DNA of 63,935 nt, filler included, from Reclinomonas americana ATCC 50394 (Eukaryota), in assembly GCA_048213135.1 (NCBI GenBank). It is 4 parts of 2 records of this genome, joined end to end, with 100 filler letters (N's around TTAATTAATTAA, not from the genome) between each part and the next. Parts side by side here need not be neighbours in the genome. Positions count along the whole stretch, not along the records: positions 1 to 21,190 come from PS015023.1; positions 21,291 to 44,703 come from PS015024.1; positions 44,804 to 54,290 come from PS015024.1; positions 54,391 to 63,935 come from PS015024.1. One strand, given 5' to 3'. The notes under the pieces are model-generated. The model ran no database searches. It was not told where the DNA came from and saw nothing but the letters and a program-made list of their open reading frames with translations. Shown here piece by piece: positions 3,386 to 62,511 of this stretch (positions within the stretch are counted from its first letter, which is position 1; every line of letters begins with the position of its first letter). The position numbers were made by a program, and so were the translations under genes.

Positions 3386-6300
3386 ATGCGGCGACTTGCA
3401 CACAAGTCGAATGCCTCTGTGCTGGTGATTGTGGTGCTGCTGTTGGCGACTGTGGCGGTCGGTGATGTGTATCTGCATTCGCCTCCGGGAAGCAACAATC
3501 GGTGAGTGTATGAGGGGAAGAGAGAGGAAAGCAGGCTTGACGGGTCTTCCTTCACTCCGTGCTCCTCTCCTCTCTCTCTCTCGCTCATCTTCCTCCCCAT
3601 CACACCGCAGTCTTGTTTCACTCTGTTCCGTATGTCATTGGCGCTCGTCGCTCTTTTGTCGGTCCCTCTCTGCCTTTTCTTCCTACCGGTGTCTCTTCGC
3701 TTCGTGTCCATTTCGTCTCTCTCTCTCTGTTCTCTTTCTGCTCTCTCTCTCTTCCTCTTTTATCACTTCCACCTTCTCCGTTTCATTCTCTCTTATCCTC
3801 GTGTCATTGGCGCGCTCGTCCCTCTTCTGTCGGTCCCTCTCTGCCTCTTCTTCCTCCCAGTGTCTCTTCGCTTCGTGTCCTGTTCGTCTCTCGTCGTCTC
3901 TCTCTGCTCTTTCTCTCACTTTTCTATCACTTCCTCTTTCCCTCATTTCAGTCTCTCTGTTCCTGATGACTTCGGCTTCTTTTGCATCCTTCTTCTGCCA
4001 GTCCCTTTCTGCCCCCTCTTTCTCCCATGTCTCTTCAGTTCGTGTTCTTGCATCTCCCTATCCTCTTTACTCTGTTCTCACCTTGCGGGTCATTCCAGCA
4101 CCCTTCTTTCTGTCGCGTTCGTTCCTCATTAATCATTCTCGTTGCCCACTCTTTCCCCTCACCCGCCATTTCCCTCTTGCAGCCTGAACGAGGACACCAA
4201 CAACCGAGCCAACAACAACCGGTGCGCTTGTTTTTCACCGCTTCACCATTCTCTCTCCTCTCGCCACTCATCTCTTCCCCACCCCTCGCAGCCTGTTCAA
4301 CTCACAGAACAACAACCGTGGTGGCTACAACGTGGGCGAGAACTGCCCGAACGGCTGGTCCGACATTTCTCCGTCGGATGGTCACACGAGCGGAACGTTG
4401 CGCACATTCCTTCTGCATATCCTCCACTCTCTCCACCCACTCACTCGTGGTGTGCGCTGCGACACAGTCGAGTCACATGCACGGGCGCCGCCGATGGCTC
4501 CGTGGCCGACTTGTCACAGCCGCAAGAGCAAGTTACGCGCGCGCACACACTCGTCTCTCGTGTGGTCTTGTTGCTCATCCAACGACACAGGGTCCCTTGC
4601 GGTATCTCGAGGACTCGCTGGTGTACATTGAGTGGACGAACCAGCACGCCTGCGGTCAGCAGCAGGGCAAGGTGTTCTGCAACATTGTGCTGCAGTACAT
4701 GTGCTGGCCGGTGCGTGTTGATCCATGTCTCTCTCAGCTCGTCCATGTCTGGTCCTTCCCTTGCCCACTCCATTGTTCTCGCTGAATCTGTCTCTCTCTT
4801 TCTTTCTTTCTTTCTCTCTCTCTCTCTTCGACATCTTGATCAATCACGCTCTGTACCTATCTCGCTCCTCGTCCTCTCTGTCCATTCTTCTCTTTATTCG
4901 CGTTGCTTTCTCTGACTCGCTCGCTTTCTCTCCCATGCTTCGTCGCCCTGCACTCCCTTCTTGTTCGTGCAGTAATGTATTCCTTCACTTCGTTGCGTGT
5001 GCTTCCTCTCATTTGATCGCTTTCTCTCCCTCGCATCCTCCCACTCTCTGTTAGTCCATAATTCCGCGTATCCCTCTTTCCCCCTCTCTCTCTCGTTGTT
5101 TCCTCTCCTCTCTCCACTCTTCCCTCTACCCTTTCCTCCCTCACACCACCTCCCTTCCCTATATGGCACAGGGCACACCCGCCAACCCCGTCGGCTACGA
5201 GGGCGAAACCACCGGTCTCACCGACGGCACCACCCCGAACGGCAACCAACCCGACATTGGCCAGCACGAGCCAACGACCTTTTACGAGAAGTGCCGCACC
5301 CGCAAGCGCAACGATGGTCTCTACAAGGCCGACCAAAACCTGCCGGCCAACTCCAAGGCGATTAACACGCGCCAGAACCCGAATGGTGAGTGCACGGAAT
5401 ATCTCAACTCTTTACACGCACGCTGTCAATACGTACCTCTGTGTGTGAGCCTCTCTGTCATTGGAGGAAGAGTGGGGGAAGGAAGGAAGAAGGAGTGAGG
5501 GGTGATGGAAGGAACCCCTTGATCCTTGACCTTCTTTTCACCTCGTTGATGTTGCCAGCACTCTGTCAGTGGGGGATGAGTGGAGAAGTGAAGGAGGGAG
5601 GGGGGAGACGGAAGGAACCCATTGACCCTTGACCTTCTTTGCACCTCGTTGATGTTCCCAGCACTCTTCTTCACCATTCTCCGCTCTCATTTTCGCTCGA
5701 TCACGCAACCTTCCTTCTCGCTCGCTTTCTCCGATTCTTGCCCACTCCTCGCCACTTGGGTCTGTTCTTCTCTTTCGGTTCGTCTCTCTCGCTCACGACT
5801 CCTTTCACCGTCTCCCCATACTTCCCCTCACCCTTCTCCCTCTCCCCTCACCCTTCCCCTCACCCTTTTCCTCGCCCTTCTTCTCACCCCTTTCCCTTTC
5901 CTTCCCCCACTCCCTTCTCTTCTCACTTTGCTTTCGCCGTCTCCTTCCCTCCCCTCCTGCCTTCCCCCTCACCCTTTCCTTCCCCTCTCCTCACCCTTTC
6001 CCTCCTCATCCCCTCCCTTTCTGCAGGCAACCGCTCGGGCTCGGAGTGCCCGGAGGAGCGCGACTACTACCCCTACTGGCACCCGAGCCCATGGGTCGAC
6101 GTCGCCGTGTTCACCGACGAACCCGGCCGCTGCTCGTACTACAAGCAAAACTCCGGCAACCGCAACCCGAAGAACGAGTGCGCCTGCTCATCGTCCTGCA
6201 CGGCCGGCTCCGACCAGGCCGCCGCCTGCTGGCAACACAACACCGAAACGGGCTGCTCGGTGAGCACCCACCGTCGCTCGTCCTCTTTGCTCTTTCTGCC

Positions 6301-8549
6301 TAACTTGTCGTCTTGGGTGTGCAGGCGGAGGCCGGTTGCCAGTGGGTACAAAAGACGCACGTCGATTTCTGGGACACCACATTCGACTCAATGAGCCCGA
6401 ACAACCTCCCCGAGGTCGAATGCATCGAGACTCCCTTCAACCGCGACAACCATCTCGGTGACAATCCCATGGGCACCAACAACTACTACTGGTGGCGTGT
6501 GCCGAGCACCAGCCAGGCGTGCGGTGCCAATGGCGCCGACTGCGAGATGTGCACTTTCCGCCTGCGCTACAACATCACCACTGCCGACTACAACAACCTG
6601 CAGCAGTGGCAAGTGGCCGACAATGCCGTGTGGCAGAGTTGCGGGATTCAAACTCTCTTTGCACCTCCTTCGCTTCCTCATCATCGCTCTGCTGCATCGC
6701 AGGCCTCAACAAGCCCGTCGACTACTTCTTTGTCGACAGTCGCTTGAATGGCGCGCAGTCGATTCTCATGGACGGTGTCTCCAATTACTTTGCACGCAAC
6801 CAAGGTGGGTGTCGCACGCAGGCACACGCAGGTCACAGTGAGTGAGAGAGGGAGAGAGGAAGTTGGAGAGAAGCGAGACAGAGAGGAGAGAAGAGAAGAC
6901 AAAGAAATATGAGAGAGGAGGTGCAATGACATGGCTCGTGTCTCTCTGTGATTCCCCCTCTGCTCTCCAGTTCTCGTCGTCATTTTGTGACATATTCCTT
7001 TCAATTTTGTCTCTTCTCGCGCGCACTCTCTCTCCACGTCTTCTGTTCGTTTTTGCTTCTCCCCTTCTCATCCACATTACTCTTTCATTACTCTGTCTCT
7101 GTTCCACTCGTTTGTTTCTCCCCTTCTCGTCCCTTCTCGCCTCTTTCTTGCCTTCTTCACTCACTCTTTTCTCTTCATCTTCTTGTTCCCATCACAATCT
7201 GTGTCACTTGTGTGCCTTTCTGACTGTCTCTTGCTGCTCTCTCTCCTCATCCTCCCTCCCCTCCCTCCCCTCCCCCTTCCCATTTCACAGACGTGGACAC
7301 CCAAGTCGACGGCGCCCTCCGCCTCGCCCTCAACACCGCGCAGACCGGCCGCACCTTCCAAGACCGCACGCACCGCTTCGTGATTCAGAATCGCTCACTG
7401 CACGGCATCGGCGACCAAGACTGCATCATCAACGTGCTGCGGCGCGGTCGCCGCGGCAACATTGTGCAAGTGTATCCGGCTGTGGAGTACGACTTTACGC
7501 CGAACTACCTACACATGTACACGCAAGACTACGTCATGTGGCAGTGGACCGGGTCGAACACGCAGCCAGCCGGCAACGAAGGCGAGGGCAAGGCGCAGAC
7601 CGATCGCTCCAACCTGGTGGAGCTGGAGGACCTCATGCTCAACCTGCCGCGTCCGTGGTCGGAGGATGTGATGAACAAGTTGTTTGACGACCGCAACGAG
7701 GCCATTCGCTATGCCACCTCTGGCAAGTGCATCAGTCCGCAGGATTGCACGGTACGTTGTGTGTGAGAGAGAGAGAAGTGTGGAGAAGTGCAGAGATCAT
7801 GTGTGTGGGCCTGCGTGTTTTGTGTGCGTGTTTGTGTGTGCGAGGTTGTGTGCGTGTGTTTTGTGCCTCTTGTGAGCCTTTCTGTGTCTTTCCATGCCTC
7901 TGTACGCATGTGTGCCTCCTGTGAGCCTTTCTGTGCCTCTCCGTGCCTCTGTGTCTTTCCATGCCACTTGTGAGCCTTTCGGTGCCTTTCCGTGCCTCCG
8001 TGTGTGTGCCATTCTGTGCCTGTGCGCGTGTGTGCCTCTTGTGAGCCTCTCTGTGCCTTGTCGTGCCTCTGTGTGTGTGTGCCTCTCGTGAGCCTCTCTG
8101 TGTTTTTCGTACCTCTGCTCCTGCGTGCCTGTGTGTGCCTCCTGTGAGTCATTCTGTGTCCTTCCATCCCCTGTGTGTGTGCCTTGCTGTGTCATTCCGT
8201 GCCTGCGCGCGTGTATGCCTCTTGTGTACCTCCTGTGTGTCTTTGTGTGCCATCTCATGCCTCTGTGCCTTTCTGTGCCTTTCCGTGCCTCTTGTGTCCT
8301 CCCTGTGCCCTTCCGTGCCTTTGTTTACCTCCGTGACCAACCTTGTGTGTTTAGGTCAACGCAACTCTGGACGACGCTCCCGCCTACTTCCTCGGCGGCA
8401 GGAAGCCCATGCGCGGCGGCAAGTGGTACTACATGGACACGCGCAACAACAATTTCTCGAATCGCAGCACCAAGGCCACGATCGAAGTGAGCGGCACTCG
8501 CACCGGCCCCTGCGCGGTGCAGTACCCACCGCAGCAGCAACTCCTCTAG
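3386..8549 (+). CDS. DD3-3-like secreted protein, multi-exon
   Basis: Signal peptide, then DVYLHSPPGSNNRLNE...[140 protein letters not shown]; TAG at 8547-8549. Motifs recalled from the Dictyostelium DD3-3 family. Confidence 0.85.
7850..8330. repeat. Degenerate intronic minisatellite (GTGCCT / GTGAGCCT units)
   Basis: Many imperfect copies of GTGCCTC(T/C)TGTGAGCCT(T/C)TCTGT inside the last DD3-3 intron. Confidence 0.8.
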
Positions 8550-9692: not shown

Positions 9693-10720
9693 TCAATCGT
9701 CCTTCAGCGATGATCCGGAAGCCGGTGATTCGGGGAAGTGCAGGTCGTCCTGGATCAGCACGTTACCATAGTGGTCGATGCAGAACCTTGTTCGTACGGT
9801 CTTTCTGGTGGGGCTCACGGAGCGGAGAGCTGCCAAAAAAGCGTGAGTGCATGGAAGGGATTGTGCGCGGGGCTTCCTGACGCAACTCTCGTGCAGCGAC
9901 GGTCCTGCAGGCATGGTGGAGGCCAGCGGTGTGGAGTGTACGAGGTTGCGTTTCATGGAGGCGGCCAGGGTGGCCAGCGACGGCCCGATGGGAGCTCCGT
10001 TGCGACCATTGACACGAGGATGAGTCAGCGACTCGAACGTGTCGAGCATGCTCATCAAGCGTTTCTCCTGCGCCGTCTTGTCTTGCAGTTGCCGCTCAAT
10101 CTCTAGCCGTGCACGCCTCTCCGCCGACAGCTCTTGTTCCAGTTGCGTGAGCCTCTGCGCATTGCGGGGTGGTGAGCATGCATGCGCCGGGAGGCAGATT
10201 CCAAACACCCCCTTTAGTGGCACGACACGCACCGCCGAGATGTCCTCGGAGTGATGCGAGCCCTTGGAGTACGCTGACTGCATTGTCGACGGGCGTGACT
10301 GCTGACGCGACGAGCTCGAGGCCACCGTGCTCACCGACACTGACGACGAGGCGTGTGAGAGGGCCGACGGAGGTCGACTGTTGTGCGGCGTCGCCAGCGG
10401 CGAAGTCAATTGCATCATCTGTGACTGCGAGTGCGAGTGTGCTGGACCGCGAGGCCTCTACGCACAGAAGAAAAGCAAGACACAAAGGGGTTGCGTCAGC
10501 AAGAGATATCGATGACCAAAACAGCACAAACAAACACAAAGTCATGCACCGTCTTTGTTGGACTCGATCTGTATATATGCCATTCACGCAACAAGAGAAA
10601 GATCAGCAATCACATCCGCGACTGTTGTGTACACAACAAGCACGGTGACTTGATCTCTTCTGCTCTTACCGTTCTGGGGACGGGGGTCTTCCCGATCCAT
10701 TTCTGCGCCCTTCAGCCTCC
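9693..10720 (-). CDS. Hypothetical coiled-coil/low-complexity protein, multi-exon, 5' end uncertain
   Basis: Spliceable exons KWIGKTPVPRTVRAEEIKSP|SSPTKT|RPRGPAHSH...EDISA|RLTQLEQELSAERRARLEIERQLQDK...DDLHFPESPASGSSLKDD*. Confidence 0.6.
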
Positions 10721-11199: not shown

Positions 11200-13133
11200 G
11201 GTGGACAATGACAATCCTGGCGAGCCAACCCTTTTGCCCCCTCACACCAAACACAATGTCAAAGAAGTCGCCTTCCACAGTCACTCCCATGCTTCTCCCA
11301 CTTCCCGGGTTCGCCAAGGTCGCCGTGCAAGAAGTCGGCGAGGGCGTCTTCCGCTACTTTCGTTACTGTGACTTGTCTTTTCTATGTGCATGTTTTCCCG
11401 CGCGCACTCACGATGCATATTATGCGCTGCTTTGTTGTTGTTGTTGCAGCAATGGTGGCGTCGTTTGTGGGCTTTGATGAGCACGCGGACGAGCATTTGA
11501 CGCAGTTTGTCGCGGAGGAAGCCGCGTCTCTTACACAGTGGGCGCAAAAGGTTTACACACGCACGCTGTTCTCCCTCGCGCTCTCTCTTGTCTCTCTGTT
11601 CTCCTTCGATCGCTTGCTCTGTGCTGCATCAGTCATACACACGTGCATTGCATCAGCGACAGCGCTTGTCACACTCATTTTCTGTTGTGGTTTGTGGTGA
11701 CAGAATCACTTCCGTGTGCTGGCCACTGGCGAGAGTGAGCACGACGACAGTGACGAAATTGGTCGTGTGTTTGCGCGTGCGCAGTTGGAGAACGAGGCAC
11801 CATTCATCTTCCGCTCTCTGGCCGCCTTCTCTGCCTCCGCCATCAATCTCCTCCCGTCATTCTCTGTTGTCACACCGCTCTCATGTTGCGCACTCTCAAA
11901 CACAATGGCTGCTCTTTGCATTGCTCATTTCGATGGTCGATGTTGCGCAGCGAGTGAAGCTGCAGCGGTGATTGACGACGCAGATTCGCAAAAGGCGATT
12001 GGTGCATCTGCATCGTCGGCATCTACGTCTGTGGTGCAGGTGCAGCCGCCTGCAGAGTTGATTCTGGCGTACACGGGGCACGGTGCACCGGGATCCTCGT
12101 CGTGGAGCTTGCGAGGCGGGGATGGGCGACCGCAGCGTCTGTGTTGCGATCGTGTGTTGGGCGAGATGCAGCACTTTGTCGGCAAGGTTCTCTCACTCTC
12201 TCTCGCGTGCGCGATATCGCTTGTCTGGTGCGTGCTGAATGGGAGTGGCAGTGCTTGATGCGGCGGCGATGCCCCGTCAAGCGTTTCTTTATCATTGCGA
12301 ATTGTGCGGATTCGGGCTCGTGGGTGCAGCGGTTAGAGCAAGTCAGTCGTGGCGTAGAAGGTGCGAGTTTTTTCCACTCGCCGTTGTCGTGTGGTCGGTC
12401 GCTCATCACACTCGTGGGGGGTGGGAGGTAGTGTGTGTGACCATCCAGTCGTCGGGTCCTGCACTGGCCGAGGGCTCTGCCGAGTCGCGACGGTCTTCGC
12501 GTCCCAATGTGTTCATGCCGGCCTTCCTGCGCTACCAGGACTACCGGCGGCGACTGCGAGCACGGTCACCTATTCCGTATCCGCAGGCGTTCCAGCTGCG
12601 GCAGTGCCTGCTGACGCTGCTGCAGGTCAACGGCGGTGCCTACCCGCAGTACTATTGTTGCGTTGGCGTCTTCATCCAGATCTCTGTCGTCGAATGCACT
12701 ATCTCACTCGCCGTGGATGACAGGTCTCGGCACACCGTCTGAATTCGTGCACCCTCTCGGTACGTGGTTTGTTGCCGACAACATGATGTGTTGCACCGCT
12801 ACTCACCGACGCGCCCGCGTACACAGGTCAAGTCGAGTTTGAGGCCACGATGCACGACCTCAACGCCAGGTGCGAAAGCTCGCACACACACACACACACA
12901 CCAAGACACCAACATGCACCCCTGCTGCGACTGATCGATTCCTCACAGACTCAAGCCGTCGCTGTTCACACCGCGCTCCATCGTCAAGGAGATCATGGGT
13001 GAGACCAGCCGCCCCACCAACACACGGACAGGCGACTCATCCACAGCCAAAGAAGAGGAGGAGGGCGGCATACCATTGGCCGCCATTGTCGGCGTCGTCG
13101 GCGTTATGGCAGGCACGTGCACTCATCCATCGC

Positions 13134-13170
<37 letters not shown>

Positions 13171-14257: not shown

Positions 14258-17200
14258 ATGGCCAGACGTTGCGTCGCCTTACACGCACACACACACACTG
14301 ACACGCGCATGAGTGAGCGACAAGAGTGGCAGTTGGAGCAATGCTCTGTCTGTGTCTCACATGTGCGTCTGCAGGGTATGAGCGACCGGAGAGTGCGTCG
14401 GCTGTGTCGGCGCCCAACACTGGTCGCGAGTTTGTGCTGCCTCCTGTGCACAACATTCGCTTTCCCGATCTTGAAGAGGCGCCTCCTCCACCAACACGAA
14501 GCAGTTCTGCGTCACTCTCTCTCTGTCTCTGTGTGTGTACTCGCTCCTCATGTGCGTGAGTGACAGCATCAACGCGATCCTCTGTCGAGCGATCTGTGCG
14601 AAGAACAGGCGGCAGCAAGGTCGGTGTTCCATTGTTGATCGCGATCTATTCCCGTCTCTCTCTCTGATCCATCAGTGCGCAGCAAACGGTGGAGCGACTG
14701 CGCACGAGTCCGACATCGCTCAAGACGCTGAAGGAGCGCATGGAGAGCGGTGAGCTGACGACGCTGCGTGAGATGTATCCGAATCGAGTGGACTTTGAAG
14801 AGCGGCCCATTGAGTTGCCGGAACGCATGTGGGATCTCAATCTGGAGAAGGCGCAGGCGCGATCTGCTGATAGTGCGTCTGGACTACCATGAAGTCGAAT
14901 CGGCGATTGCTTTTCTCACGCGTGGCTGCAGTCGACGCGCAGGTGACAGACATGCGCGAGGGATTGGAGATCTTCTCTCGTGGCACCGCCACGTCGGTGG
15001 TGATGGATGTATCGCGAGTGATGGCGGAGCGTGAGCAGAAGACGCGTTTGTTGGATGCGTTGCGCGAGGAGAGTGTGCAGTTGCAGACGGCCATCACGTT
15101 GCTGGAGCAGGGGTGAGCGTCGGTTTTCCCGTCACCATTGCCGCGTGCGTGCAGGCTCTCACACCCCTCCCAGTTTGTCTCACTGGCGTGAGTACTCGGC
15201 CGCCCGTGAGGCGTTCCTGGCGGACAGCGAGCGCGATCCGACAGAGGAACTCGAGCGGCTGCGATTTGACGACGAGTTCCGTCGATATCTCAAGCGCAAG
15301 GAGCGCATGCAGACGTGGGCAGCACAGGCAGCGCCGGCTGCCATCGATCCTCAGGAGCTGGCACTGGAGTATCTGCGGAGTGAGACGGGCGATGTGCACT
15401 ATCATCATCCACGACCACAGCGGCAGCAGGTGCGTTGCATTACTCTGTGGACACGTGATGGTCTCCACTCGATTGACCTTCTTCCTCTCCCGACGCAGGC
15501 GCCGCTCTCCAGCGCCTCTGCATCCACCGTGTCGTCGTCGTTTGCAGACGACACGTACTCGCTGGCCAGTGATAGGGTGTTCTTCAGTGTGCTGGAGAAC
15601 GAAGGTGGTGTGCAGTGTTCGTAGTTTCCCGTTCCGTCCTCTTTTGTTCACTTGCGGTCTTGCAGACGGTGCCGCGTCGCCAACGCGATTCGGCCAGGTG
15701 CTGGAGGAGGTGCGAAGATGGAAGCAGCGAGTGTTTGGCGATGCGGTGGCCGAAGTGCAGCACAATGTGAGTCGCACGTTTCGTCATTTGGCGCCGTGCA
15801 CTCGTTGACAAACGGAGGTTGTGTGCAGACTCGCTTTCGACCGTCGCCGGCTGACATGCGTGGCATACCCGCGCAGCATCAGCGTGCGCAGAGTGCCAGT
15901 GTCACCGTGCACCGCGTGGCAAGTCACCCGGAGGCCTTGGCTGGTGGGGACATTGCTTGTATACGTGTTGCCTTCTTTTCTCTTAGACTCACTCACTCGC
16001 CCCTGCAGATGACACAGTGGGCGAGGTTGTTGAAGACGACGACGATGACGATGTGGTGCGGCTGGCTTCGAGCATCGACTACGGGAGCCTCGAGTCGACC
16101 TCCAATCCCAACTCTCGGAGACCATCGGTTGATCAGGCGGCCTTGATTGCCGTTCCGTGCATCCGTCGTTCTTTGTGGGTATGATCGCACCCACTGCTGG
16201 CTGACACGCATCGCGCAGACATTTCTCACGGCATCGCCACCCCGCCGACCTTCTCCAAAGCCACGTTGCGTTGCTCATCTCCCCCCTGCTGTTGGTTGGC
16301 GTCCACTAAATCGCTGTTCCGCGTGCACAGGCCGTGGACTGTCACCACAGCCACCACCACCTGCTGCAGTGCCGCTCATGAGTGACGGACTGCGCATGGC
16401 CGCCGCACTGGCCGAGGACGAAGACGATGTGTTGCTCTTTGAGGGTTCCAGGTGAGTGCATAGTCGCGAAACGAAAGTGCCACTGTATGCTGACGTACGG
16501 GGCCACGCAGTGCTCTACCCAGCGCTCAGCCAAGTGCACAGCCAAGTGCTCGCCAGGTATCTTCGCATCGCCTGTCAACCTCTCTGCAGATGATGATGGT
16601 ATTCACGCGTCTCCCTACAGCCGTACGAGTCAGCACAGCCAGCATCCAGTCGGCAGCGCTACTCTTCTGTTGTTGGTGAGTGCTTCCCCCATTCAAGTCT
16701 GTGTGCCTCGGTTGCTGATTCTGGCGCCTGGCAACAGACGAAGACGATTCGTTCGACCGCGGTTCAGATGGACCGCCGTCATTCATCACTGGTCTCGAGC
16801 ACTTTGCCAGCATGCGCAAGAGTCGTGACGATGTGTTGGACACGTGGTGCGTCTCGCACCGCTATCCGCCACAACGTCCCTCAGCTGCGCTTCGTGTCTC
16901 AACAAGCGCACACACAGGGCGCAACATCAATCCATGTCGTCGGGCGATGCTGCCAGCGGCGACGATGCATCGGGCGGTGATGACTTTAGTCCAAAGCCGG
17001 TCGCCGACGACGACGAGGAGAATGGTGCAATGGCCGATGTGTCTGGCGGCCTCTCCTTCACGGCCACCAGCCCCGGCGTGCCACCACCACTGCCAAATCG
17101 CGGGTACGTACGGACTGATTGCCTGTTGCGTCTCGTGCTCGTCTCACCTCTACCGCAGTGCACGCAAGAGCTCGGTCCCCAACTTGCTGCACACGGGCAG

Positions 17201-21290: not shown

Positions 21291-21337
21291 AAGCCGACTA
21301 CGTGCTGCGTGACATTCTGCCGCACTGCTTCACGCGC

Positions 21338-21374
21338 CTGCTGTACCGTACATCCGCCCTTGGCCGTATAGCAG
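21338..21374 (+). other. Untrimmed SOLiD/Ion Torrent mate-pair internal adapter
   Basis: CTGCTGTACCGTACATCCGCCCTTGGCCGTATAGCAG versus the recalled adapter CTGCTGTACCGTACATCCGCCTTGGCCGTACAGCAG (one extra C, one mismatch); sits exactly where the LysR gene is cut. Confidence 0.85.
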
Positions 21375-22116
21375 GATCCGCGCCATGTTGGCGCCGACCG
21401 AACAGGGCGCGGCCTTCCTGCCCCAGGCCCGCCGCCTGCTGCGCCTGAACGACGAGATCCTGGCCAGCCTCGGCGCCGACGAGATCGAGGGCGAGGTGCG
21501 GCTGGGCGCGCCCGAGGACTTCGCCACCCAGCATCTGCCCGCCGTATTGAGCTCGTTCGCCCGCAGCCATCCGCGCATCGCCCTGACCGTCACCTGCGAC
21601 CTGACCCTGAACCTCCTGGATCGCCTCGGCGAAGGCGCGCTGGACCTAGCTCTGGTCAAGCGCGAGCCGCTGGGGCCGGACCTTGGCGTGCGGGTCTGGC
21701 GCGAGCCGCTGGTCTGGGTGGCGCTGGATCCCGAGATGGCGCGGCGCGAGGGTCCGGTCCCGCTGGTGGCCGCGCCGGCCCCTTGCGTCTATCGCAAGCG
21801 CGCGGTGGCGGCGCTGGAGGCGACCGGGCGAGCCTGGCGCGCCACCTACACCAGCCCCTCCCTGGCGGGACAACTGGCGGCGCTACGAGGCGGTCTCGGC
21901 TTAAGCGTTCTACCGCGCGAGATGGCGCCGGACGATCTCACCATCCTGTCCGAAGGCCTGCCGCGCCTGGAGGACGCCGAGATCGCGCTGTTGAAGGCGC
22001 GGGGGACGCCGCCACCGGCCGCCGAGCGGCTGGCCGATCACATTCTCACCGCCCTGGATCGCCAGCGGACCCAGCCCCAGCCGTCGACGCGCGCTACGGG
22101 CGCAGCCCCGTCGTGA
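21375..22116 (+). CDS. LysR-family transcriptional regulator, HTH truncated by adapter
   Basis: PTEQGAAFLPQARRLLRLNDE...GEVRLGAPEDFATQHLPAVLSSFARSHPRI...LDLALV substrate-binding domain. Confidence 0.9.
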
Positions 22117-22169
22117 TCGGACGTTTGCGATTTTGACGGGATCGTCAAATTTGTGAGATAAGGCCCAGA

Positions 22170-22305
22170 TACACCAAACCCGCCGCGGGGGATAATCGCG
22201 ACGGGCTGGCTATTTTCTCGATCATTCGATCTAGGCGGGCGTTTCCTCCCCGAAACGCCGAAGAACGGGAGCTCTCTGTTGGGCTCGTTTCGTCCTTGCA
22301 GTGTG
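22170..22305 (-). ncRNA. crfA: Probable CrfA-like Caulobacter small RNA (ends approximate)
   Basis: Intergenic between LysR and hisG; internal hairpin GGCGTTTC-GGGGAG-GAAACGCC; terminator-like 3' stem GCCCGTCGCG...CGCGGCGGGT-TT; TTGACA upstream. Position matches my recollection of the CC3510-CC3511 sRNA. Confidence 0.55.
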
Positions 22306-22455
22306 TAGAAACGTCAAATTCGTGACGCTGTCAACGCGGCCATCGCCTTTTTCTCAACGGGTTGGCTGAATTTTTGACGCAACCGCTGTTGTTTGGACGC
22401 TCGGGTCGAATTTACGTCGAGATTCACCCCCTATTTTTGACGAAACCGTCAAATC

Positions 22456-22943
22456 TTACTTTTCGAGCGCCGCGATAAAGCGATCCAGCACGGCCGATCG
22501 CGACTCGAACACGTAGTCCGGACGCGAGACAGTGACCGGCTCGACTCCGGCTTCCGCCAGGGCGGCGGCGGCGTCGAACAGGTCGGCGGTGGCCAGGAGG
22601 GCGCCGTTGGCCCGGCGCGAGCCGCCTCGGGCGACATAGGCGGCGACGGCGTCCTGGGCGGCGCGGTCCTGCTCGGCCGGCCAGACCAGGGTGGCGAGCT
22701 TGCCCGCCCGGCCCTTGGCCTCGACCACCGAGAGCAGTCGGCGCAGGGCGTCCAGCTGCTCGCCGTTCCAGCCGGCGGTCAGGGAGGCGGTCAGCTGGGC
22801 CTGGCTCTTCAGGATCGCCCCGTCGGACAGGATCTTCAGCCCGTTGGCGGCCAGGGTCGCGCCGGTGGTGGTGATGTCGACCACCAGCTCGGCGGCGCCG
22901 GCGGCGGGGGCCCCCTCGGTGGCGCCGCTGCTCTCGACGATGC
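22456..22943 (-). CDS. hisG: ATP phosphoribosyltransferase, C-terminal fragment
   Basis: [33 protein letters not shown] signature; 5' part lost in N gap. Confidence 0.88.
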
Positions 22944-22968
22944 NNNNNNNNNNNNNNNNNNNNNNNNT

Positions 22969-23127
22969 GTCCAGCGCCTCGAAGCCGTAGCGCTCATAGA
23001 CCGCCGACACCGCCTCCAGGATCGCCCGCTCGGCCCGCAGGTCGCGCGCGCGCTTGTCGGCGAAGCCGCGCGGAGCGCGGGCCTCGGGGCGGAAGTCGGT
23101 GTTGGTTTGTTCGGCGTCGGTGGTCAT
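22969..23127 (-). CDS. hisS: Histidyl-tRNA synthetase, N-terminal fragment
   Basis: RPEARAPRGFAD...AVYERYGFEAL (class II motif 1 region); AGGA RBS upstream. Confidence 0.8.
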
Positions 23128-23218
23128 GCGTCGGTCCTAAGTCTTCTAGGCTTCGACGGATGGCGCTTGCACTTAAGCCCCATCCGCTAGGCGGGGCTCT
23201 GGCTGGGTACGCTCGGCT

Positions 23219-23299
23219 TTAGAGCGCGCGGACCCGGCCGATCCCGCGAGGCGAGGTCGGATGGTGGTGGTGGCCGTGATGGTGCGGCGTGCGGGTCAT
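23219..23299 (-). CDS. His-rich leader peptide MTRTPHHHGHHHHPTSPRGIGRVRAL
   Basis: 26-aa uORF with 7 His in 8 codons, ending 91 nt upstream of the hisS ATG. Confidence 0.85.
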   Translation of the reverse strand: MTRTPHHHGHHHHPTSPRGIGRVRAL

Positions 23300-23393
23300 T
23301 GCGGGGGCGGTGTAGCGGAGATGGAGCGTGGGGGGAAGGGGGCTAGGGCCTTCTAAGCCCCACACCAAGTCAATCCACCAAAACGCCCAAAAA

Positions 23394-24485: not shown

Positions 24486-24506
24486 TTCGACTCCTTTATG
24501 AAGAGC

Positions 24507-25013: not shown

Positions 25014-25015
25014 CA

Positions 25016-25162
25016 ATGGCTCCGCCAAAGAATCCAGGAACAACCTCAAAGGGTGGCCAAGAACGTGGGGCCTTCAACGACAAGGCTCCGAACACAGCGC
25101 CCCGACCGCAAACGCCTACGCCAAATCAGCAGCCGACGCCTAGGCCGACCGACAAGAAGTGA
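25016..25162 (+). CDS. Putative 48-aa Pro/Thr-rich peptide
   Basis: MAPPKNPGTTSKGGQERGAFNDKAPNTAPRPQTPTPNQQPTPRPTDKK*; weak purine-rich RBS. Confidence 0.45.
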   Translation: MAPPKNPGTTSKGGQERGAFNDKAPNTAPRPQTPTPNQQPTPRPTDKK

Positions 25163-25274
25163 TCTTAACCTGAGGATGGCATCGCGTGGTGTCTACTCTT
25201 CGTTGCGTCTCACCACGTGTCGATCCCAGGGTGGGCCGGGTTGCTCAAGGACGGCGCTTCGCGCCGCCGCCCAG

Positions 25275-25401: not shown

Positions 25402-25458
25402 AACCGATCTGACGGGAAGGGGCGGACCCGCAGAACGTCCCCTCCGTCCGCGTCTCCC

Positions 25459-25824: not shown

Positions 25825-25909
25825 GTCGGTTCGGCCCCTCCCGCCGTCTCTCTTCGTTGGGTCGGCAGGTTAGCGGCAAACGGCGCAGGGGCCAGGGGGG
25901 CCGCGCGCC

Positions 25910-41290: not shown

Positions 41291-43024
41291 ATGTTGCGCC
41301 TTGCAGCGATCGCCTTGCGACTTGTTCCCGCGAGGTGCGGTCGCGCATGCTCATCGAGCAGCTCGTTTGCTGCACTGGCGGCTGCCGATGCCGCATGGAA
41401 AGGCGGCGATATCAGTCAGGCGCTGCAATTGGCACGAGAGGCCACGGCCGAGGCCACCGATCCGCAAGCTCTCTGTGCGTGCGTGCTCGTCTGTCAGTGT
41501 GCGTGCGTTGCTGGGGAGGAGGTGACTCACACTGTGGTGGAGTAGTGCGTGTTGGCGATATGCATCTCGTGGCGGAGGAGCTGGCGACGGCGTTGGAGTG
41601 GTACAACAAGGTGTTGCGCGTGGATCCGAGTGAGGTGGCGGCGTACACGCATCGTGCGCAGTGTTTTGAGCGGATGCAGCAGTTTGGAGAGGCGGTGGTG
41701 CGTGCTGATGCATGGCCTCTCACTGACTGTGTGACTGACGGCATTGTGTTGTTCAGCGCGACTATGAGGAGGCGCATCGATTGGTGGTGGAGACGGCAAC
41801 CGATGACATGGACGACGATGCGCTGCGGCAGACGAGAGCAGAGATCCTCATGTGGTTCGTCTGGCGTGTGTGTGTCTCTATGTGCATTTGCGGCCTCATG
41901 CTCCTGCCGCACAGCAAGGGCTACGCTTTTCTCAATCAACACGCCAAGCTGATCGAGGCTGCACGCCAAGAGGACGACCCACAGGTTCCTCTTCTTGTTT
42001 TCTCTGTCTCCCCCCGACTGGGCACTCACTCCGCCGCAGCGGCGAGCGTCGCCGGAGATTGCGGACACACTGACTGCGGCGATTGTGTCGTACTCGGAGG
42101 TGCTGGCGCTCGTGCCCGACAACGTGGACGCCATGTACGGTCGCGCCCTGTGTTTCGTGCGTGGTGGTCAGTACGATGCGGCCATTGTCGATGCAAAGGC
42201 CTGCTTGCAGATCGACGACGGCCACCTTCCGTGCAACCACGTGCTTGCCGAGTGTTTCCAGCTGCAAGGTACATTGCTCGCCGCCCTCCGCCCTCCGCCC
42301 TGCACATCTTCCCGTGTTCTTACTCTCTCTCTTGACTGACAGAGCAATGGGCGGAGGCTGTGGCCTACTACACGCGCTACCTCGACGGACTCGACGCGTA
42401 TGTGACACAGGCGATGCAGCGTGGTTCGTGAGTTGTCTCCGACACACCCTGCACCTTCCCTCATCCATGCACACAGGTGGCCAGGGTGTTGGCGAGATTC
42501 CTCGTGCCATGTGTCAGGCGGCCTTCAAGCGCTCCGTGTGCCTCGTGAACATGAACAAGTTCCAGGATGCTGTCGAGGGCTTTACGGGATACATTAGCGT
42601 TTCGTCCATCGCCCCCTTTTCCCTCTCCCCCGCTCCTGTCTCACCGACTCCTTCCTTATTCACAGCTGGTGGAGATGCTGGTGCAGAATTCGCCGCCCGA
42701 CGCGGCCCCCTACTGGACCGACCGACTCGGCCTGGCGTACTTGCGGCGCGGCAGGTGCTGGGCGGCGCTGAACGAGAACTTCAAGGTACACGCACCGCAC
42801 GCACATTCCACACACATTCTTGTCGCACACTGTCCTCACGAGGCTCGTGGCAGGCGGTCGAGGATTTTACGCTGGCGGCGAGGCACATTCCGCAGCACTT
42901 TGAGATTTACGAAGCGCGAGCGCAGGCCTGGCGCAACTTGGCCATGCACGAGAATGCGGAGAAGGACATGCAAGAGTACCGCCGACTCAAGCGCACCGCC
43001 ATCTTCGAGGTGTACAACGAATGA
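41291..43024 (+). CDS. TPR-repeat protein, probable mitochondrial presequence
   Basis: Repeated TPR helices (ALEWYNKVLRVDP...AYTHRAQCF; YSEVLALVPDNVDAMYGRALCF; IYEARAQAWRNL). Confidence 0.8.
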
Positions 43025-52836: not shown

Positions 52837-52917
52837 CGCGCCGGGCATGATTCGAACATGCGCGGGTTTCCCCAGTTGATTTCGAGTCAACCGCCTTGAC
52901 CACTCGGCCACCGACGC
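52837..52917 (-). tRNA. tRNA-Ser(CGA)
   Basis: 81-nt cloverleaf: GCGTCGG/CCGGCGC acceptor, GTTGA-CTCGAAA-TCAAC anticodon arm, long variable arm, GCATG-TTCGAAT-CATGC, G discriminator, downstream T-run, no encoded CCA. Confidence 0.95.
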
Positions 52918-53112: not shown

Positions 53113-54290
53113 TCATCTGCTGCAACAACCACCCGAACCACTATCTCCGCCCGCTGCTGCCTCGCCGCCGCCGTCGGCACCGCGCAGTACGTTGGCCGAG
53201 TTCGTGCGTCGGGCGGCTGTCACAAATCGTCGAATGGTGAGAGAGAGATCCCGCAAGACGCAGCACTGGTAAAGTTCCTCCCCTCCGCAACTCCTGCCCG
53301 TGGCTATCATGCGTTTCTTGGCCGCCCGTGCCACCGTCAGGAACGCCTCGTCGACGCCTTCGCCAGTCAGTGCACTGCTCTCCGCAAACGAGGTCTGGAA
53401 CACGCGCGCCAGCTCTTCCCCGCGTGCTCGACTCACTCGCTGCGCCAGCAGCTGTCAGCACGCTGCAGACGGCACACTGTGCACCAATGACCGTACCCTC
53501 TCGCCACCCGGACAGTCCGTCTTGTTGCCGACGAGGATCACGTCGACGCCCTCGACAGCGTTTTCCCGAATGCTTTGCATCCACATCTTGACGTCTTTTC
53601 ACATCGATCAGCAACAAACGACACAACGGTACTCCATCGGCAAAGAGCACACACAACTGGAGAACGACTGCTCGCTGGTCACATCGTACACCAGCAGAAT
53701 GCCCATGGCTCCTCGAAAGTACGCTGCATCGACGACGACGACGACGACTCAGCTGCACAAAGACAAAGACACAGAAATCGCCTCCCTCACCGTGAGTCAC
53801 ACTGCGGAAGCGCTCCTGGCCTGCTGTGTCCCACACCTGCACCGAGGTATCCTTGCCATCCTGACGACGATGGACGATGAGGAACGAAATGACACATGGA
53901 CAACTGCGCTTATAGCACACACCAGATCCACTATCTTTTGTCGAAAGTCGACACTGTGTGTGCGTGAGAGAGAGAGAGAGAGGGAGACAGAGAGAGCAAG
54001 GGAAACACGGCCGACACGTGCGTGTGAGGCAGCGAGCGCGCGGATTCCTCTCTCTCTCTCATGTTCCACTTCACAGTGACTCACCCGATGGTGCTGACAA
54101 ACGAGTGTGTAAAGAGGTCCTCGGTGAAGCGCAGGAACAGACACGACTTGCCGACACCTGCTCGTTTGTTGTGTTCGGTTGTGTGTCGTGAGAAAAAAGA
54201 CAAGTCGTTCTCACACGTACACACACACACGCACAGTGAGGACGCAACCACTGTCGCCGATTAGCAGCAGCTTGATCAAGTCAACGCCGT
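53113..54290 (-). CDS. Rab GTPase (Rab8/Sec4/Rab1-related), 5' truncated
   Basis: [63 protein letters not shown], C-terminal GGCCSR. Confidence 0.92.
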
Positions 54291-55867: not shown

Positions 55868-56855
55868 ATGCTCTTCCTCATTGGTCTCGGTCTCGGCGAT
55901 GTCAAGGACATTACGCTGCGTGGTCTCGAGCTGGTGAAGCGCAGCGAGAAGGTGTACCTGGAGATGTACACGGCCATTCTCATGTGCGACGCCCAGACAC
56001 TGGTTGCATTCCTCTCCCTCTCTCACACTCCCTCTCTCTCTGCATCCACTCACTCATCTCCATCAGAGTGAGTTCTACGGCAAGACAGTGCAGGTGGCCG
56101 ATCGCGAGTTTGTCGAGTCAGGCTGCGAGGCCATGCTGGAGGAGGCGCGGCACATTGATGTGGCCTTTCTGGTGGTGGGCGATCCATTCGCGGCCACCAC
56201 ACACTCCGACCTGTTCCTGCGTGCGCGTCAGATGGGCACACAGGTGCAGGTGGTGCACAATGCCTCCATCATGACGGCAATCGGGGCCACGGGACTGCAG
56301 ATGTATCGCTTTGGGCAGACGGTGACAGTCGTGTTCTTCACGGAGGAGTGGCGACCCGAGTCGTTCTATGACCGCATTGCGGAGAATCGGCGCATGAACC
56401 TGCACACGCTGTGCTTGCTGGGTGAGCGATCAAGAGCGAGCGAGTGAGTGAGTTGAGCTGCTGAATAGCGTGACGATTGCGCAGATCTCAAGGTCAAGGA
56501 GCAGAGCATTGAGAACTTGCTGAAGGGCCGCAAGATCTACGAGCCGCCACGGTACATGACGGTGAACCAGGCGGTGGAGGAGCTGCTGGAGGTGGAGGGC
56601 AAGCGCGGTGAGTCGGTGTGCACGGCGTCGACGCCGGCATTCGGGCTGGCTCGTGTCGGCACCGACTCGCAGCTGATTGTGAGTGGCACGTTGGGTGAGC
56701 TGCTGGAGGTCGACTTTGGCGGCCCGCTGCATTCGCTGATTGTGTGCGCCGAGTTGCACTTTATGGAGGAGGAGATGTATCAGTATTACAGACAGCCAGG
56801 CGCGCAGGCAACGGCCGCCGCCTCGGATGCTCCCGCACCGACGGCCGCGGAATGA
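55868..56855 (+). CDS. DPH5: Diphthine methyl ester synthase, 3 exons
   Basis: [89 protein letters not shown]. Confidence 0.97.
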
Positions 56856-57026: not shown

Positions 57027-59720
57027 CTACATGTCGAGCTTGACAGATGGGCGCGCCTTTGCTTGCGGTGCCCATGCGCGCTCGAGAATGGCTTCGAACT
57101 CGCCGTCCGTGTCCACACTCGCACTAATGTTGGCAAAGTATTTCTCGAATTCTGTGATGGAGAACGCGCGATGAGAACAGACTGGACAGGAAAAGAACAT
57201 GGGAGGAGACCACGAACCGGGCAAGTGGATTTCTCCGTCGCACTCGTCGTCGTACGTCTCGATGAAATGCCGCGCCACCTCGTCGGCCGATGCCGATCCC
57301 TGCAACAGAAGTTAGTCGCAATCCTTTGTGTTTCACACGACGACGACGAGTGGACGCACCGAAGGGCGGAACTTGTCGCGCAGATCATTGATATCGAGCA
57401 CACCGCTGCCGTCCACGTCGAGTCGGGCAAACATGCGCTGCACTGCGGCGCGCCGCCTGTCGTTCATCTCGCCGCGTAGGACGTGAATGAATTCGTCGTA
57501 CCTGCCATGCATGCATGCGTAGAAATGAGTGGCGGAGTGTTACAAATAGTCATGTTGTTCGACACCACGCAACGAGATGCCACCCGAGCTGTCGGCGTCG
57601 AAGAAGTTCAGCATCTGCTTGAACTCGTCGTCCTTCAGGTCGAGTCCGAAGCGATACAATGCAATCTTGAACTCGTCGGCATCGATCTGGCCGCTCTTGT
57701 CCGAGTCCTGAATGCGGAAGTTGCGACCGAGCTGCGCGATGCCTGTGGCGCGCGCGCGCTTGGGGTAAGCTACGAACACGACGCTGTTCCGCAGAGGAGA
57801 TTGACGCAACTCGTAACACCTCGGTCGGACAGCTTCTGGCGGAGCGCCATGATAATCTCGCTCAGCGTCATCGATGCGCGGTTGAGGTTTGGCTTTTGTC
57901 GGTACGACACCGACGCCGCCGCCTTGGCGCGTTGTCGCTGCAGCGCGGGGTCACGCTTGTCGCGGAATGCACTCTGAATCATCGCCACAAAGTAATCGTC
58001 GTCGTCGATCGAGGCCGACACCGAGGCGTAGTAGCGCTCGAATTCTGCGCAGGTGGTTTGAGATGACGGAAAGATGACCGCATTCAACAGAGGTGACTCA
58101 CCCTCGGGATACACACGCCCGTCCTTCAGGCCGCCGTCGAACGAGTTGAGGAACTCGGCGAGAATCTGCTCCTCGGTCTTGATGCCACCGACCACACTCG
58201 GGTGACGGCTGGCGTTGTAGAGTCCCTTCAGGTCGTCGACCTCCACCACACCGTTGCCGTTCGTGTCGAGCTGCTGGAAGGCCTGACGAATCGCCTCGCG
58301 ACGAATCGGGCTCAAGTCGCCACGCAGACCAGTGAGGAACTCGTCGTATGACAGCGTGCCATCGCCGTCCACGTCGAACTCGCGCATCAGCAAGTCAAAC
58401 TCGCGGCTGCTCAGCTCCAGACCCACTTCGCGGAACGCTTTCAGGATCTCCTCCGGATCGAGCTTCCCCGAGTTGTCATCGTCCATGATGCGGAAGCGCT
58501 TGCCGAGAGCAGCAATGCCCGTGACACCGCGACCCTTGAGCACCGCACGAATCTTGTTGAGCAGCTCCTGCGAGGTGCGTGCCGGACCCGCCAGGCCATT
58601 CACGCGTGCCGTGGTGCCACTCATTGTTCCGCTCTGCACGCAGCGATGAGTGTGACAAACAAGGGGAGAAAAATGCGGCGCAATAAGTGAGACCTTGATG
58701 GTGGCCACCAACTGCGGAGCGAGTGCAGAGCCCTGAGACTTGACACGGGATGATTCGGCCATCGCTGCGCGAGTAAAGACTGTCGACTGCGAATACGGCT
58801 TGGGTTCGGCACCGTCGGACTGTGGCGCATTAAGTGAGCAACCTCGAAACATGCCATCATCTCCCCCTTTTTTTTCAACACACAGTACCATGCCAGGCGG
58901 CGCGAAATCGGTGGGCTTGGTGATGACCTCGGTGGCCAGCTGCACTTGCCCCTCGGCAGCCAACGCCGTCTTCAGTCCACGCTCACGACGCACCGACGCC
59001 AGCACACTCGGCGGCAGATTGCGCGGCTTGTACGAGATCTTCAGGTCGCCCGAATCGAGGAAGCCAAGTGCCGAACCGGCCGGCGGCTTCTGCGGGAGGA
59101 CATTCGAGTAAAAGATGGCATTCATCGTCAGCCCGCTCGCATCGATTCCCGAGTCGGCCGAGTCCACCGGCGGCGACACCGACTTGCCAGTGCCCGTCAG
59201 CGGCGACTGTGTCACCTTGAAGCTGGAACGCGCCAGAGATCCAGCCTGCCACGCAACAACAACAACAACCAGGTGTCAGAGAAAAACGGGAAACAACATG
59301 CCGAACAATCAATCAGCTACACACAGCGCACCGTATCGTCCTCCTCGGCCTTGGCACGCTGATAGGAGACACCGACGGTCTCCAGCTTTCGTGGCACATG
59401 CCCCGAGTACCCAGGCACATACGCTCCCGATCGCTGCAACGCCTGCTCTCTCTGTGCGTGAGTGACCTGCGGGCTGGCTCCCCAGCTACACGCACGTGCT
59501 CAGAACTCAACTGCCTCCTCCTCCGCCGACCGCGCATACGGCGCTCCATCGCCCTGTCGCGCCGCCGAATCTCGCAGCTTGGCCTCCTCCTTGTAGAACT
59601 TGGCCTCCTGCACCGGATTCACATCCCAGAAACCGTTCTCGCGCTTGCCTCGCGTCACCTCCGGGTCGCGCACAATGAAGAAATCGCGACCCGAGCCACT
59701 CGGTTGATAGCTGCCACAGT
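57027..59720 (-). CDS. Calcyphosin-like EF-hand protein with two 4-EF modules; 5' end at gap
   Basis: RGVTGIAALGKRFRIMDDDNSGKLDPEE, DVDGDGTLSYDEFL, AFQQLDTNGNG, YNASRHP, EFERYYASVSASIDDDDYF; second module RGVTSIAQLGRNFRIQD...EFEKYFANISASVD. Confidence 0.88.
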
Positions 59721-60909: not shown

Positions 60910-62511
60910 CGCAGCCATTGCTTGCTCAATGTCGCGCGCCTCGATGTCGAGTCGTGGCCGTGGTCTGCCTTGCGGCGATAATGACAGATCTGCATCCGGA
61001 CTGCAGCAGGTACAATGTAGAGATCAGAGTCTCCATAAAAGATTGCTGCTGCGTGAGACACCACGCTGCACGCAACGTATCGCGACCCATCGACGGAGAC
61101 ATGGGTGGTGCTGATGAGGCGGCGGCGGCGCTGTGAACCTCCTGCATCTCGCGCGACTCGCGCGCCTCCTGTGCCGCACGCTCCTTCTTTCGTTGCTCCA
61201 GAATCCAGTCGTAGGTCGTCATGTTCTTAAAGTCTGCCGAGTGCATCAGCAACCAGTCTACTATATCCAGCGTCACCAGGCCACGCAACATATCCAAATG
61301 TGGAAGCTGAGCAGCTGCAGCAGCAGTGCTCCGGCCACACAGCCGAGCACCGCGAACAGCGCCAACAGCGCCAGATGAAGACCAAAAGGCATCGAACTGT
61401 ACACACGACGAACTGCAGCCATACGAGAAGATGAGCGACACTTTCCGACACTCTGTTCTCTCTCTCTCCTTCTCGCACACACACCATCGGCCTTGGTCGC
61501 ATCCTCGTTCGTGAAGTAGATAACAAAATGGTACACACTCATAATCACGATAAACGCCGCCGTCAACAGCGTACATAGCACAAAGGCGAAGAATTGTCTG
61601 CGATGATTGATTGGAGGCGATCAACATCGGCGATGCTTCGTTCTGCAACCACACACACACACACACACACGCTCCACTCACCGATAGTTCCTCTGGCCGA
61701 CACACGTGTTGAGCCACTGGCAGTGATGATCGAAATGGCCGACGCACTTGTTGCAGAGGCGGCAGTGCTTGCTCCTCTTGTGCCTGGAGACCACACATCA
61801 GCAGCACTGCGCGACCACCACAGCACCACCAGCAAGATGACTCACACATACAGCTGGCAGTAGTAGCAGTCCTCGTAGTCCTTGTTGCTGTCGCTAAACG
61901 TGCTGGCAAACTTCGCCTGCATCGCCTTATCCAGGATCATGGGATCCGACGGGTCAATCACCGTCGCCCAGATCTTCAGCGTCACCACCGTCGCCAGCAA
62001 CACACCAAAGATCTGTCACGCACACTCATTCAATACCTGCTCTTGTCGGGAGAAGGGCGATGAGCGTGCACGCAACAGCCATCGTCACAATGCCCGCCTC
62101 CCGCGGCAAAGTAGGTCCCACCAGCACGTAGTAATACACGGCAAACACCACAATGAGCGCCCACGCAATGAGCTGCGGAGGTCCCAGCGGTCGCGAGAAT
62201 CCAGTCACACGAACATAATCCTATCGGGAAATGATGATGATATGACGATGATAGAAGACAACGATGATGACGAATGAACACACCGTGAAGAACTCCTGTG
62301 TGAGAGAGAGAGAGCGAGTGAGTGAGTGGAAAAACGAAATCGAGCTCATTCTCGTTCTGAATAACGATCACAGCACGCACACACTCTCTCACACACGCGA
62401 ACACACACAGAGAGGGCGACAGAGAGAAAGAGAGAGAGAGCGATCACACATACTTTCGCGTCATGGCAAGCCCCCTCTCACCTCTGGCGCACTCCCTGAG
62501 CACAGCGGCAT
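60910..62511 (-). CDS. DHHC palmitoyltransferase (ZDHHC1/11-like); ends approximate
   Basis: [82 protein letters not shown]. Confidence 0.92.

Follow-up and report, generated by a model that had tools for sequence, protein, structure and literature searches.

The stretch of DNA examined here, called the window throughout, comprises 63,935 bases from Reclinomonas americana ATCC 50394, with 58% G+C outside gaps and 16 runs of N. Most of it is intron-rich eukaryotic DNA, in which Pfam families identify two Ras/Rab genes and genes for a protein kinase, a GOST-family membrane protein, a GHMP kinase, a diacylglycerol kinase, a TPR protein, an MFS transporter, a diphthine synthase, an EF-hand protein and a DHHC palmitoyltransferase. 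A further long, multi-exon gene, rich in cysteine (3450–8500, plus strand), matches no Pfam family. Our subject is a set of 5′ splice sites (donors) in this DNA, typified by GTTGCG, in which a G stands at intron position +6 and not at +5. These donors very probably form a real and common class that is specific to donors, and they have lost the G that ends the exon at most other introns of the window.

Introns were placed on the basis of DNA, protein homology and reading frames. Gene regions were translated in three frames, and protein features together with frame logic then fixed each border by coordinate. The motif rules used were the P-loop GxxxxGK[ST], the 12-residue EF-hand loop, the spacing of the DHHC family and the W that follows LD in diacylglycerol kinases. 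Fifty-nine introns were placed by hand and are reported in three tiers: 25 fixed by a motif or homologue, 47 fixed by motif or frame, and all 59. A bacterial stretch at about 21.3–27.9 kb was excluded from every count. As a donor-agnostic check we used a custom protein-to-DNA spliced aligner whose splice-site knowledge is limited to GT and AG. A donor-blind gene parser, with acceptor, length and codon models and no donor preference beyond GT, served for donor-blind tallies only; it is crude and recovered 19 of 31 hand-placed introns exactly, and a learned donor table brought no improvement (15–18 of 31). The most over-represented words of the window, the (CT)n and (GT)n microsatellites, misled self-training of the donor model.

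All 59 placed introns run from GT to AG, and 56 of them end in CAG. Their architecture is very uniform, with a median length of 65 nucleotides (nt) and 57 of 59 falling within 53–91 nt. A branch-site-like CT[GA]A[CT] was found in 11 of the first 31 introns placed, compared with 7% of random 39-nt windows. Removal of the 25 introns fixed by motif or homologues restores conserved protein sequence and frame. Judged by their GT and AG ends and by this restoration, the introns are genuine GT–AG spliceosomal introns of U2 type.

In the diphthine synthase gene, the spliced aligner chose both introns with 27 of 27 homologues; the best protein match to an exon of this gene is 74% identical, followed by many eukaryote groups at 61–72%. 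The EF-hand protein (57027–59275, minus strand; best named match Aphanomyces, 49%) consists of two tandem modules of four EF-hands each, the first nearly free of introns and the second cut by four. Within what seemed a single long EF-hand exon, homologue-guided alignment (4/4) alone revealed an in-frame intron of 57 nt (58045–58101, minus strand; donor GTGAGT with G at −1) that had been missed by hand. Stop-free in-frame introns are common in this GC-rich DNA, and open reading frames therefore overstate exon length.

GTTGCG accounts for 73 of the 7,984 GT sites of the window (0.9%). Among donors its share is 5 of 25 in the motif-fixed tier, 10 of 47 in the motif-or-frame-fixed tier and 17 of all 59. 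By contrast, intron interiors contain one copy in 3,995 nt, located four bases past another donor, so that GTTGCG is far commoner at donors than inside introns, a comparison on which the first-pass annotation of this DNA had let its proposal depend. Internal exons contain two copies in 5,749 nt. In the donor-blind parser's tally, GTTGCG ranks second (10 of the 135 donors predicted), one short of GTGCGT (11); three further GTTGCG sites chosen by the parser, at 11885, 48011 and 49475 (all plus strand), were absent from the first-pass list. The heptamer GTTGCGT occurs 31 times where a third-order model expects 12.3; 12 of these occurrences coincide with placed donors.

The class is wider than this one hexamer. 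We defined shifted donors by T at +3, G at +6 and no G at +5, and refer to all others as ordinary. Shifted donors follow the pattern GTT-N-Y-G, mostly with T next, and include GTTGTG (53657), GTTTCG (42599) and GTTACG (4532). They make up 6/25, 13/47 and 20/59 introns in the three tiers, the last share being inflated because the sites listed beforehand are themselves included; across seven genes walked end to end they account for 11 of 45 introns. Shifted and ordinary introns have the same length and the same acceptor. Placement and enrichment together bear out the claim of a common class. The claim that most other donors carry G at +5 is also borne out, by 27 of 34 ordinary donors. GTGCGT, the core of the ordinary class, is the joint commonest hexamer among the donors fixed by motif or frame (10/47).

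The two classes differ sharply at the last base of the exon. Among motif-or-frame-fixed introns, −1 is G in 1 of 13 shifted donors and in 31 of 34 ordinary donors (Fisher 1e-7). The same difference appears when only protein-fixed introns are counted (1/6 against 17/19, p = 0.002), when the four weakest placements are removed (1/10 against 30/33, p = 3.6e-6), and among the donors of the donor-blind parser (0/12 against 34/51). Over all tiers, G is depleted at −1 of the shifted class (1/20, p = 0.009) and A is mildly enriched (8/20, p = 0.04). This composition fits a model of shift in which −1 plays the role of the ordinary −2.

The intron side points in the same direction. Under the profile of ordinary donors, the intron side of the shifted donors scores −3.00 nats when aligned normally and +2.78 nats when the profile is moved one base downstream, with about 0.96 nats of this gain stemming from the class definition. 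T at +7, found in 10 of 13 shifted donors, mirrors T at +6 in 19 of the 27 ordinary donors with +5 G. Ordinary donors obey an additive logic of pairing and compensation: the seven that lack +5 G all have G at −1, six of them with A at −2 as well, and the three that lack −1 G are all GTGCGT or GTGAGT. Since shifted donors have neither of these anchors, they are not weak sites of the normal register. A one-base error at both borders was also considered and rejected, since among the 6 best sites G opens the following exon in only 3 and closes the preceding exon in only 1.

The first-pass annotation had listed 18 coordinates as GTTGCG, and direct read-out found that sequence at every one (18/18); the related donors it gave at 37001 (GTAGCG), 35242 (GTCGCG) and 4532 (GTTACG) likewise read as described (3/3). 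Ten of the 18 are backed by motifs, homologue-guided alignment or frame logic. Five of these (57810, 57573, 54248, 37678 and 61289) are pinned down by motifs in the protein or by alignment with homologues, as had been said of several sites, and five (62076, 31886, 6638, 4397 and 12657) are required by frame, with one in-phase GT at normal intron length. The other eight comprise six in-frame, stop-free candidates (53291, 9886, 16265, 39617, 40943 and 29127), one ambiguous site (35812) and one speculative site (14268).

Two of the sites fixed by protein evidence lie in the EF-hand gene. The intron at 57502–57573 (minus strand; 72 nt, GTTGCGT, C at −1) splits an EF-hand loop, splicing restores the 12 residues of the loop motif, and 24 of 24 EF-hand homologues chose this donor in the donor-agnostic alignment. 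The intron at 57743–57810 in the second module (minus strand; 68 nt, GTTGCGT, A at −1) was chosen by 6 of 24; the remaining homologues began downstream and none used another donor. A Rab gene intron at 54158–54248 (minus strand; 91 nt, GTTGCGT, G at −1) lies inside the P-loop, with the exon that follows entering the Pfam Ras profile at position 10. A rival GTGGTT donor for this intron was rejected, as it would require a GAG acceptor, which is found in 0 of 59 introns. Frame and continuity of the Ras domain place a second Rab gene intron at 53595–53657 (minus strand; 63 nt, GTTGTGT, A at −1).

In the diacylglycerol kinase gene, the intron at 37678–37742 (plus strand; 65 nt, GTTGCGT, T at −1) starts at the one GT that preserves the frame downstream, and the exon corresponds to positions 84–105 of DAGK_cat. 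The DHHC gene holds two such introns. At 61234–61289 (minus strand; 56 nt, GTTGCGT, T at −1) the DHHC profile match ends at the donor, which is the only GT fitting the CAG acceptor; at 62013–62076 (minus strand; 64 nt, GTTGCGT, T at −1) the donor is the only in-phase GT before a stop, and the donor-blind parser agrees. The parser also agrees on the TPR gene intron at 42599–42665 (plus strand; 67 nt, GTTTCGT, C at −1), where a frame change is needed and the donor is the sole in-phase GT, and on the intron of the GHMP/phosphomevalonate-kinase-like gene at 31886–31944 (plus strand; 59 nt, GTTGCGT, C at −1), where the frame has to change and any other in-phase GT would leave an intron of 29–38 nt. 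An intron at 12657–12723 (plus strand; 67 nt, GTTGCGT, T at −1), in a gene without a name, requires a frame change for which there is a single in-phase GT.

Placement in the Cys-rich gene relies on frame. Here the donor of the intron at 6638–6702 (plus strand; 65 nt, GTTGCGG, A at −1) is the sole phase-1 GT, and the introns at 4397–4467 (plus strand; 71 nt, GTTGCGC, C at −1) and 4532–4590 (plus strand; 59 nt, GTTACGC, A at −1) are frame-consistent; homologue alignments chose the acceptors of the latter two, at 4468 and 4591, and not the donors. The representative library holds 77 distant relatives of this gene, the best with 43% identity over one exon. Its homologues, about 40% identical and variable in length around the tested introns, are too divergent to fix 4397, 4532 or 6638; site 6638 was picked by 2 of 10 homologue alignments, while the other 8 took varied donors.

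Several sites remain candidates. One, at 61001–61076 (minus strand; 76 nt, GTTGCGT, C at −1), was absent from the first-pass list; the reading frame beyond it looks more like protein and runs up to a GTGCGT donor. Four are in frame and free of stops: 53217–53291 in the C-terminal tail of the Rab protein (minus strand; 75 nt, GTTGCGG, A at −1), 9830–9886 (minus strand; 57 nt, GTTGCGT, A at −1), 16265–16330 (plus strand; 66 nt, GTTGCGT, C at −1) and 39555–39617 (minus strand; 63 nt, GTTGCGT, T at −1). The candidate intron at 40767–40943 (minus strand; GTTGCGC, A at −1), also in frame, is unusually long at 177 nt and has a TAG acceptor. In the gene of the GOST-family membrane protein, the claimed GTTGCGT donor at 29121–29127 (minus strand) is in frame with a TAG acceptor and the Pfam match ends near it; it stands outside the placed set, and a homologue search with the GOST-family exon at this site gave no match. 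The claimed GTTGCGT donor at 14268–14274 (plus strand) would follow a first exon of 10 nt and is speculative, with an in-frame downstream ATG as an alternative start. Two sites are ambiguous: the candidate intron at 35812–35881 (plus strand; GTTGCGC, A at −1) shares its acceptor with in-phase GTATGT (35824) and GTGCGT (35830), and GTAGCG at 37001 has an in-phase GTGCGC at 37037.

The window contains three further features of note. Between N gaps lies a bacterial island (21291–27949) with full-length Caulobacter small RNAs, CrfA (22164–22299, minus strand) and CC3513 (23182–23356, plus strand), and a LysR-type gene (21385–22116, plus strand) whose identity to Caulobacter records is 91–97%; most likely the island is a contig from a contaminant that was joined to the eukaryotic assembly during scaffolding. 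In the eukaryotic part, TAATTAA (with TTAATTA) was observed 8 times against 0.1 expected under a third-order model. A tRNA-Ser gene with anticodon CGA (52837–52917, minus strand) sits between the transporter gene and the Rab gene.

To model pairing with U1 RNA, each donor (−3 to +9) was folded against the canonical U1 5′ end as given in the excerpted part of PMC4856993, with bulges and loops allowed; the parameters are those of unmodified RNA without proteins, and the resulting energies are model values. The predicted mean duplex energy was −6.74 kcal/mol for ordinary donors, −2.70 kcal/mol for random GT sites and −1.16 kcal/mol for shifted donors, the last being no better than matched GTT controls without −1 G (−1.14 kcal/mol). 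Of the predicted ordinary duplexes, 33 of 34 adopt the canonical register, while the shifted donors show no consistent one. Varying U1 positions 3–6 gave 256 versions, among which the canonical one ranks 69th. The best, with C, G, C and A at these positions, separates both classes from random GT sites, with an area under the curve (AUC) of 0.89 for shifted and 0.88 for ordinary donors. A version with G and C at positions 5–6 reaches an AUC of 0.70 for shifted donors and places G+1 on position 9 in 6 of 13. These fits rest on 47 sites with free parameters and are predictions rather than findings. An Rfam search of the window found no small nuclear RNA (snRNA) genes.

In the best supported reading, to which we give about one chance in two, an ordinary donor core is used one base out of register, with G+1 in place of the exon-end G. 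There would be two registers of a single core, G/GU-GCGU (generally G/GU-RNGU) and N/GUU-GCGU (generally GUU-N-Y-G-U), where the slash marks the exon border. The seven-base forms GGUGCGU and GUUGCGU differ at one position. The donor-recognising RNA would bind the common UGCGU stretch alike in both forms; in the second, the first G of the intron would sit where the exon-end G normally sits, and cleavage would use the sole GU available, which lies one base upstream of where the cut usually falls with respect to the helix. Because the canonical U1 5′ end should not hold the shifted sites, the affinity would have to come from elsewhere, such as a lineage-specific U1 5′ end, a second U1, a protein or snRNAs that act later. 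We regard as a tentative possibility that the U1 5′ end has changed, or that a second U1 is present, and pairs with the GCGU core, so that one guide RNA reads both G/GUGCGU and /GUUGCGU. In that case one of the best-conserved RNA–RNA contacts of eukaryotes would have changed by co-evolution, with a quarter of introns in a register that is rare in humans.

Several observations weigh against a shifted register. With the canonical U1, the shifted-register duplex is unstable: G+1 falls on position 9 in 1 of 13 shifted donors, and the AUC against random GT sites is 0.29–0.30. On these folding models, a shift would need the extra assumption of a diverged U1 or of help from proteins. Both the register score and the argument that G+1 replaces the −1 G are partly built in by the class definition and the obligatory G+1. 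Two donors that keep −1 G, GTTGCT at 37787 and GTTGCA in the diphthine synthase gene (56003–56066, plus strand; 64 nt, 27/27 homologues), imply that GTTGC is usable in the normal register too. At 4397 and 4532 in the Cys-rich gene, 0 of 5 homologue alignments each chose the donor. For one ordinary EF-hand intron, the aligner preferred a 42-nt intron from 57341 (21/24) over the 60-nt intron placed by hand from a GTGCGT at 57359. Finally, the sample is one 61-kb window with introns placed by hand, and the share of the class may be inflated because several genes were picked for holding claimed sites.

Alternatively, the register might be that of ordinary U1 with a bulged U: G+1 and U+2 would pair normally, one U of +2/+3 would loop out, and GCGU would pair as +3 to +6 normally do. 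Adjacent U's at +2/+3 are a feature of a proven human register (PMC4856993, in the excerpted part), and a bulge would account just as well for the improved fit (+2.78 nats) one base on. What argues against it is the exon end. A bulge in the normal register would still gain a pair from −1 G, yet this base is present in 1 of 13 shifted donors (1/20 over all tiers); its loss therefore favours the shifted register over the bulged U. Folding with bulges allowed, moreover, gave shifted donors no advantage over the GTT controls (−1.16 against −1.14 kcal/mol) and no consistent register, and even in humans the type amounts to merely 68 predicted sites among 201,541 (PMC4856993). The modelled duplexes suggest that the human explanation is insufficient, as the GCGU core would mismatch U1 at one position and the shift would break the rest of the helix. 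The first-pass annotation had proposed a donor bulged or shifted by one base. Its displacement stands, given the profile fit one base later; a bulge of the human type on a normal U1 does not account for the class, as the predicted pairing is weak, no better than at random GT sites, and −1 G is lost. We consider the bulged U unlikely.

A third explanation reverses the roles of the two classes: the U1 5′ end of this lineage, or a second U1 gene, would be complementary to GUUGCG in the normal register, and pairing with the GUGCGU class would leave one U1 base in a loop. Best at separating both classes is the version with C, G, C and A at positions 3–6; it puts G+1 opposite position 8 in 11/13 of the shifted and 29/34 of the ordinary donors, and the canonical version comes only 69th of 256. 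Avoidance of −1 G might then reflect avoidance of over-stable U1 binding. Against this stand the free parameters of a fit to 47 sites and the result of the Rfam search, which detected no snRNA gene within the window. To our knowledge, the U1 5′ end is also nearly invariant across eukaryotes. A change in snRNA has been raised as a possibility for the GTGCGTG donors of Ostreococcus (Irimia and Roy, 2008; PMC2483917, in the excerpted part). On balance, a complementary U1 of this kind seems doubtful.

It is also conceivable that no special RNA register is involved, and that short, intron-defined introns need little U1 pairing, GTTGCGT being bound by a protein or simply a frequent tolerated variant. 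The short and uniform introns (median 65 nt, 56/59 with CAG), the 7 of 34 ordinary donors that also lack +5 G, and the prediction that canonical U1 does not bind the class would all agree with this. The class, however, carries much information at +3 to +7 and shows an enrichment of about 20-fold at donors, and its co-variation with loss of −1 G points to specific recognition, which makes this explanation rather improbable. An annotation artefact, in which a preferred motif guided the hand placement away from the true junctions, could draw on the 8 of 18 listed sites that are still candidates (including 35812 with its two conventional in-phase rivals) and on the divergent homologues that did not choose 4397 or 4532, but it is highly improbable given the choice of 57573 by 24 of 24 homologues in donor-agnostic alignment, the second rank of GTTGCG in the donor-blind parser and the five sites fixed by conserved protein features.

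Recognition of donors by U1 is treated as nearly universal, and the only known non-canonical registers belong to humans, where they cover a small share of sites (1.5%; PMC4856993, in the excerpted part). A lineage with displaced donors in about one intron in four would lend itself to asking how cleavage is fixed out of register, how U6 handles displaced donors and how evolvable the U1 5′ end is. In practice, gene finders that use a single position weight matrix would misplace many exon borders in the Reclinomonas americana genome; the parser of this analysis placed 19 of 31 borders exactly.

Among known intron classes, U12-type introns resemble the present case in forming a second, sequence-rich donor class beside the major one. 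Their donor consensus is [A/G]TATCCTT. We rejected a U12 identity, as GTTGCGT and its relatives are unlike this consensus and the intron lengths and acceptors are those of the ordinary class. Many introns with a common start motif would also be expected of introner elements, mobile introns that Verhelst et al. are said to have described in 2013, for example in Micromonas. This origin was rejected as well: the mean local score between intron bodies is 7.08 within the class and 7.73 among ordinary introns. With no likeness beyond the first seven bases, the shifted introns are therefore not copies of a mobile intron.

A full-text literature search, with subscription journals and supplements outside its coverage, returned no GTTGCG-type donor class and no lineage with common shifted GT donors. 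In the excerpted part of a tunicate paper (PMC13326754), a shifted register is raised merely as a possibility. Closest to our case are the human shifted-register donors (Roca and Krainer, 2009, as summarised in the excerpted part of Tan et al., 2016; PMC4856993). In the human sites the pairing helix is displaced by one position, as is proposed here; in both, the fit is poor in the normal register and good one base later, and G stands at +6 instead of +5. The human sites, however, are a handful, where the class here takes up about a quarter of introns, and their core is AAGU rather than GCGU. The duplex modelled here with canonical U1 is no better than at random GT sites. Human donors of the bulge +2/+3 register (Roca et al., 2012; Tan et al., 2016, PMC4856993, in the excerpted part) share the GUU start followed by the normal consensus one base late, a likeness that follows from the class definition and is extended by +7 T in 10 of 13. 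They differ in that their register should favour the exon-end G that is lost here (1/13), and no stable bulged duplex was found for the present class. According to the excerpted text of PMC4856993, validated non-canonical registers amount to 1.5% of 201,541 human donors, with 68 predicted sites for bulge +2/+3.

The ordinary class, in turn, finds its counterpart in Ostreococcus lucimarinus, whose donors are atypical and strictly GTGCGTG (Irimia and Roy, 2008; PMC2483917, in the excerpted part) and thus contain the same unusual GTGCGT core. No class one base later is reported in the excerpted text of that paper, and, unlike Ostreococcus, the organism studied here is intron-rich. Shifted and bulged registers were thus already known as rare human sites, and the GTGCGT core from Ostreococcus; new in this analysis is that shifted donors lose the exon-end G.

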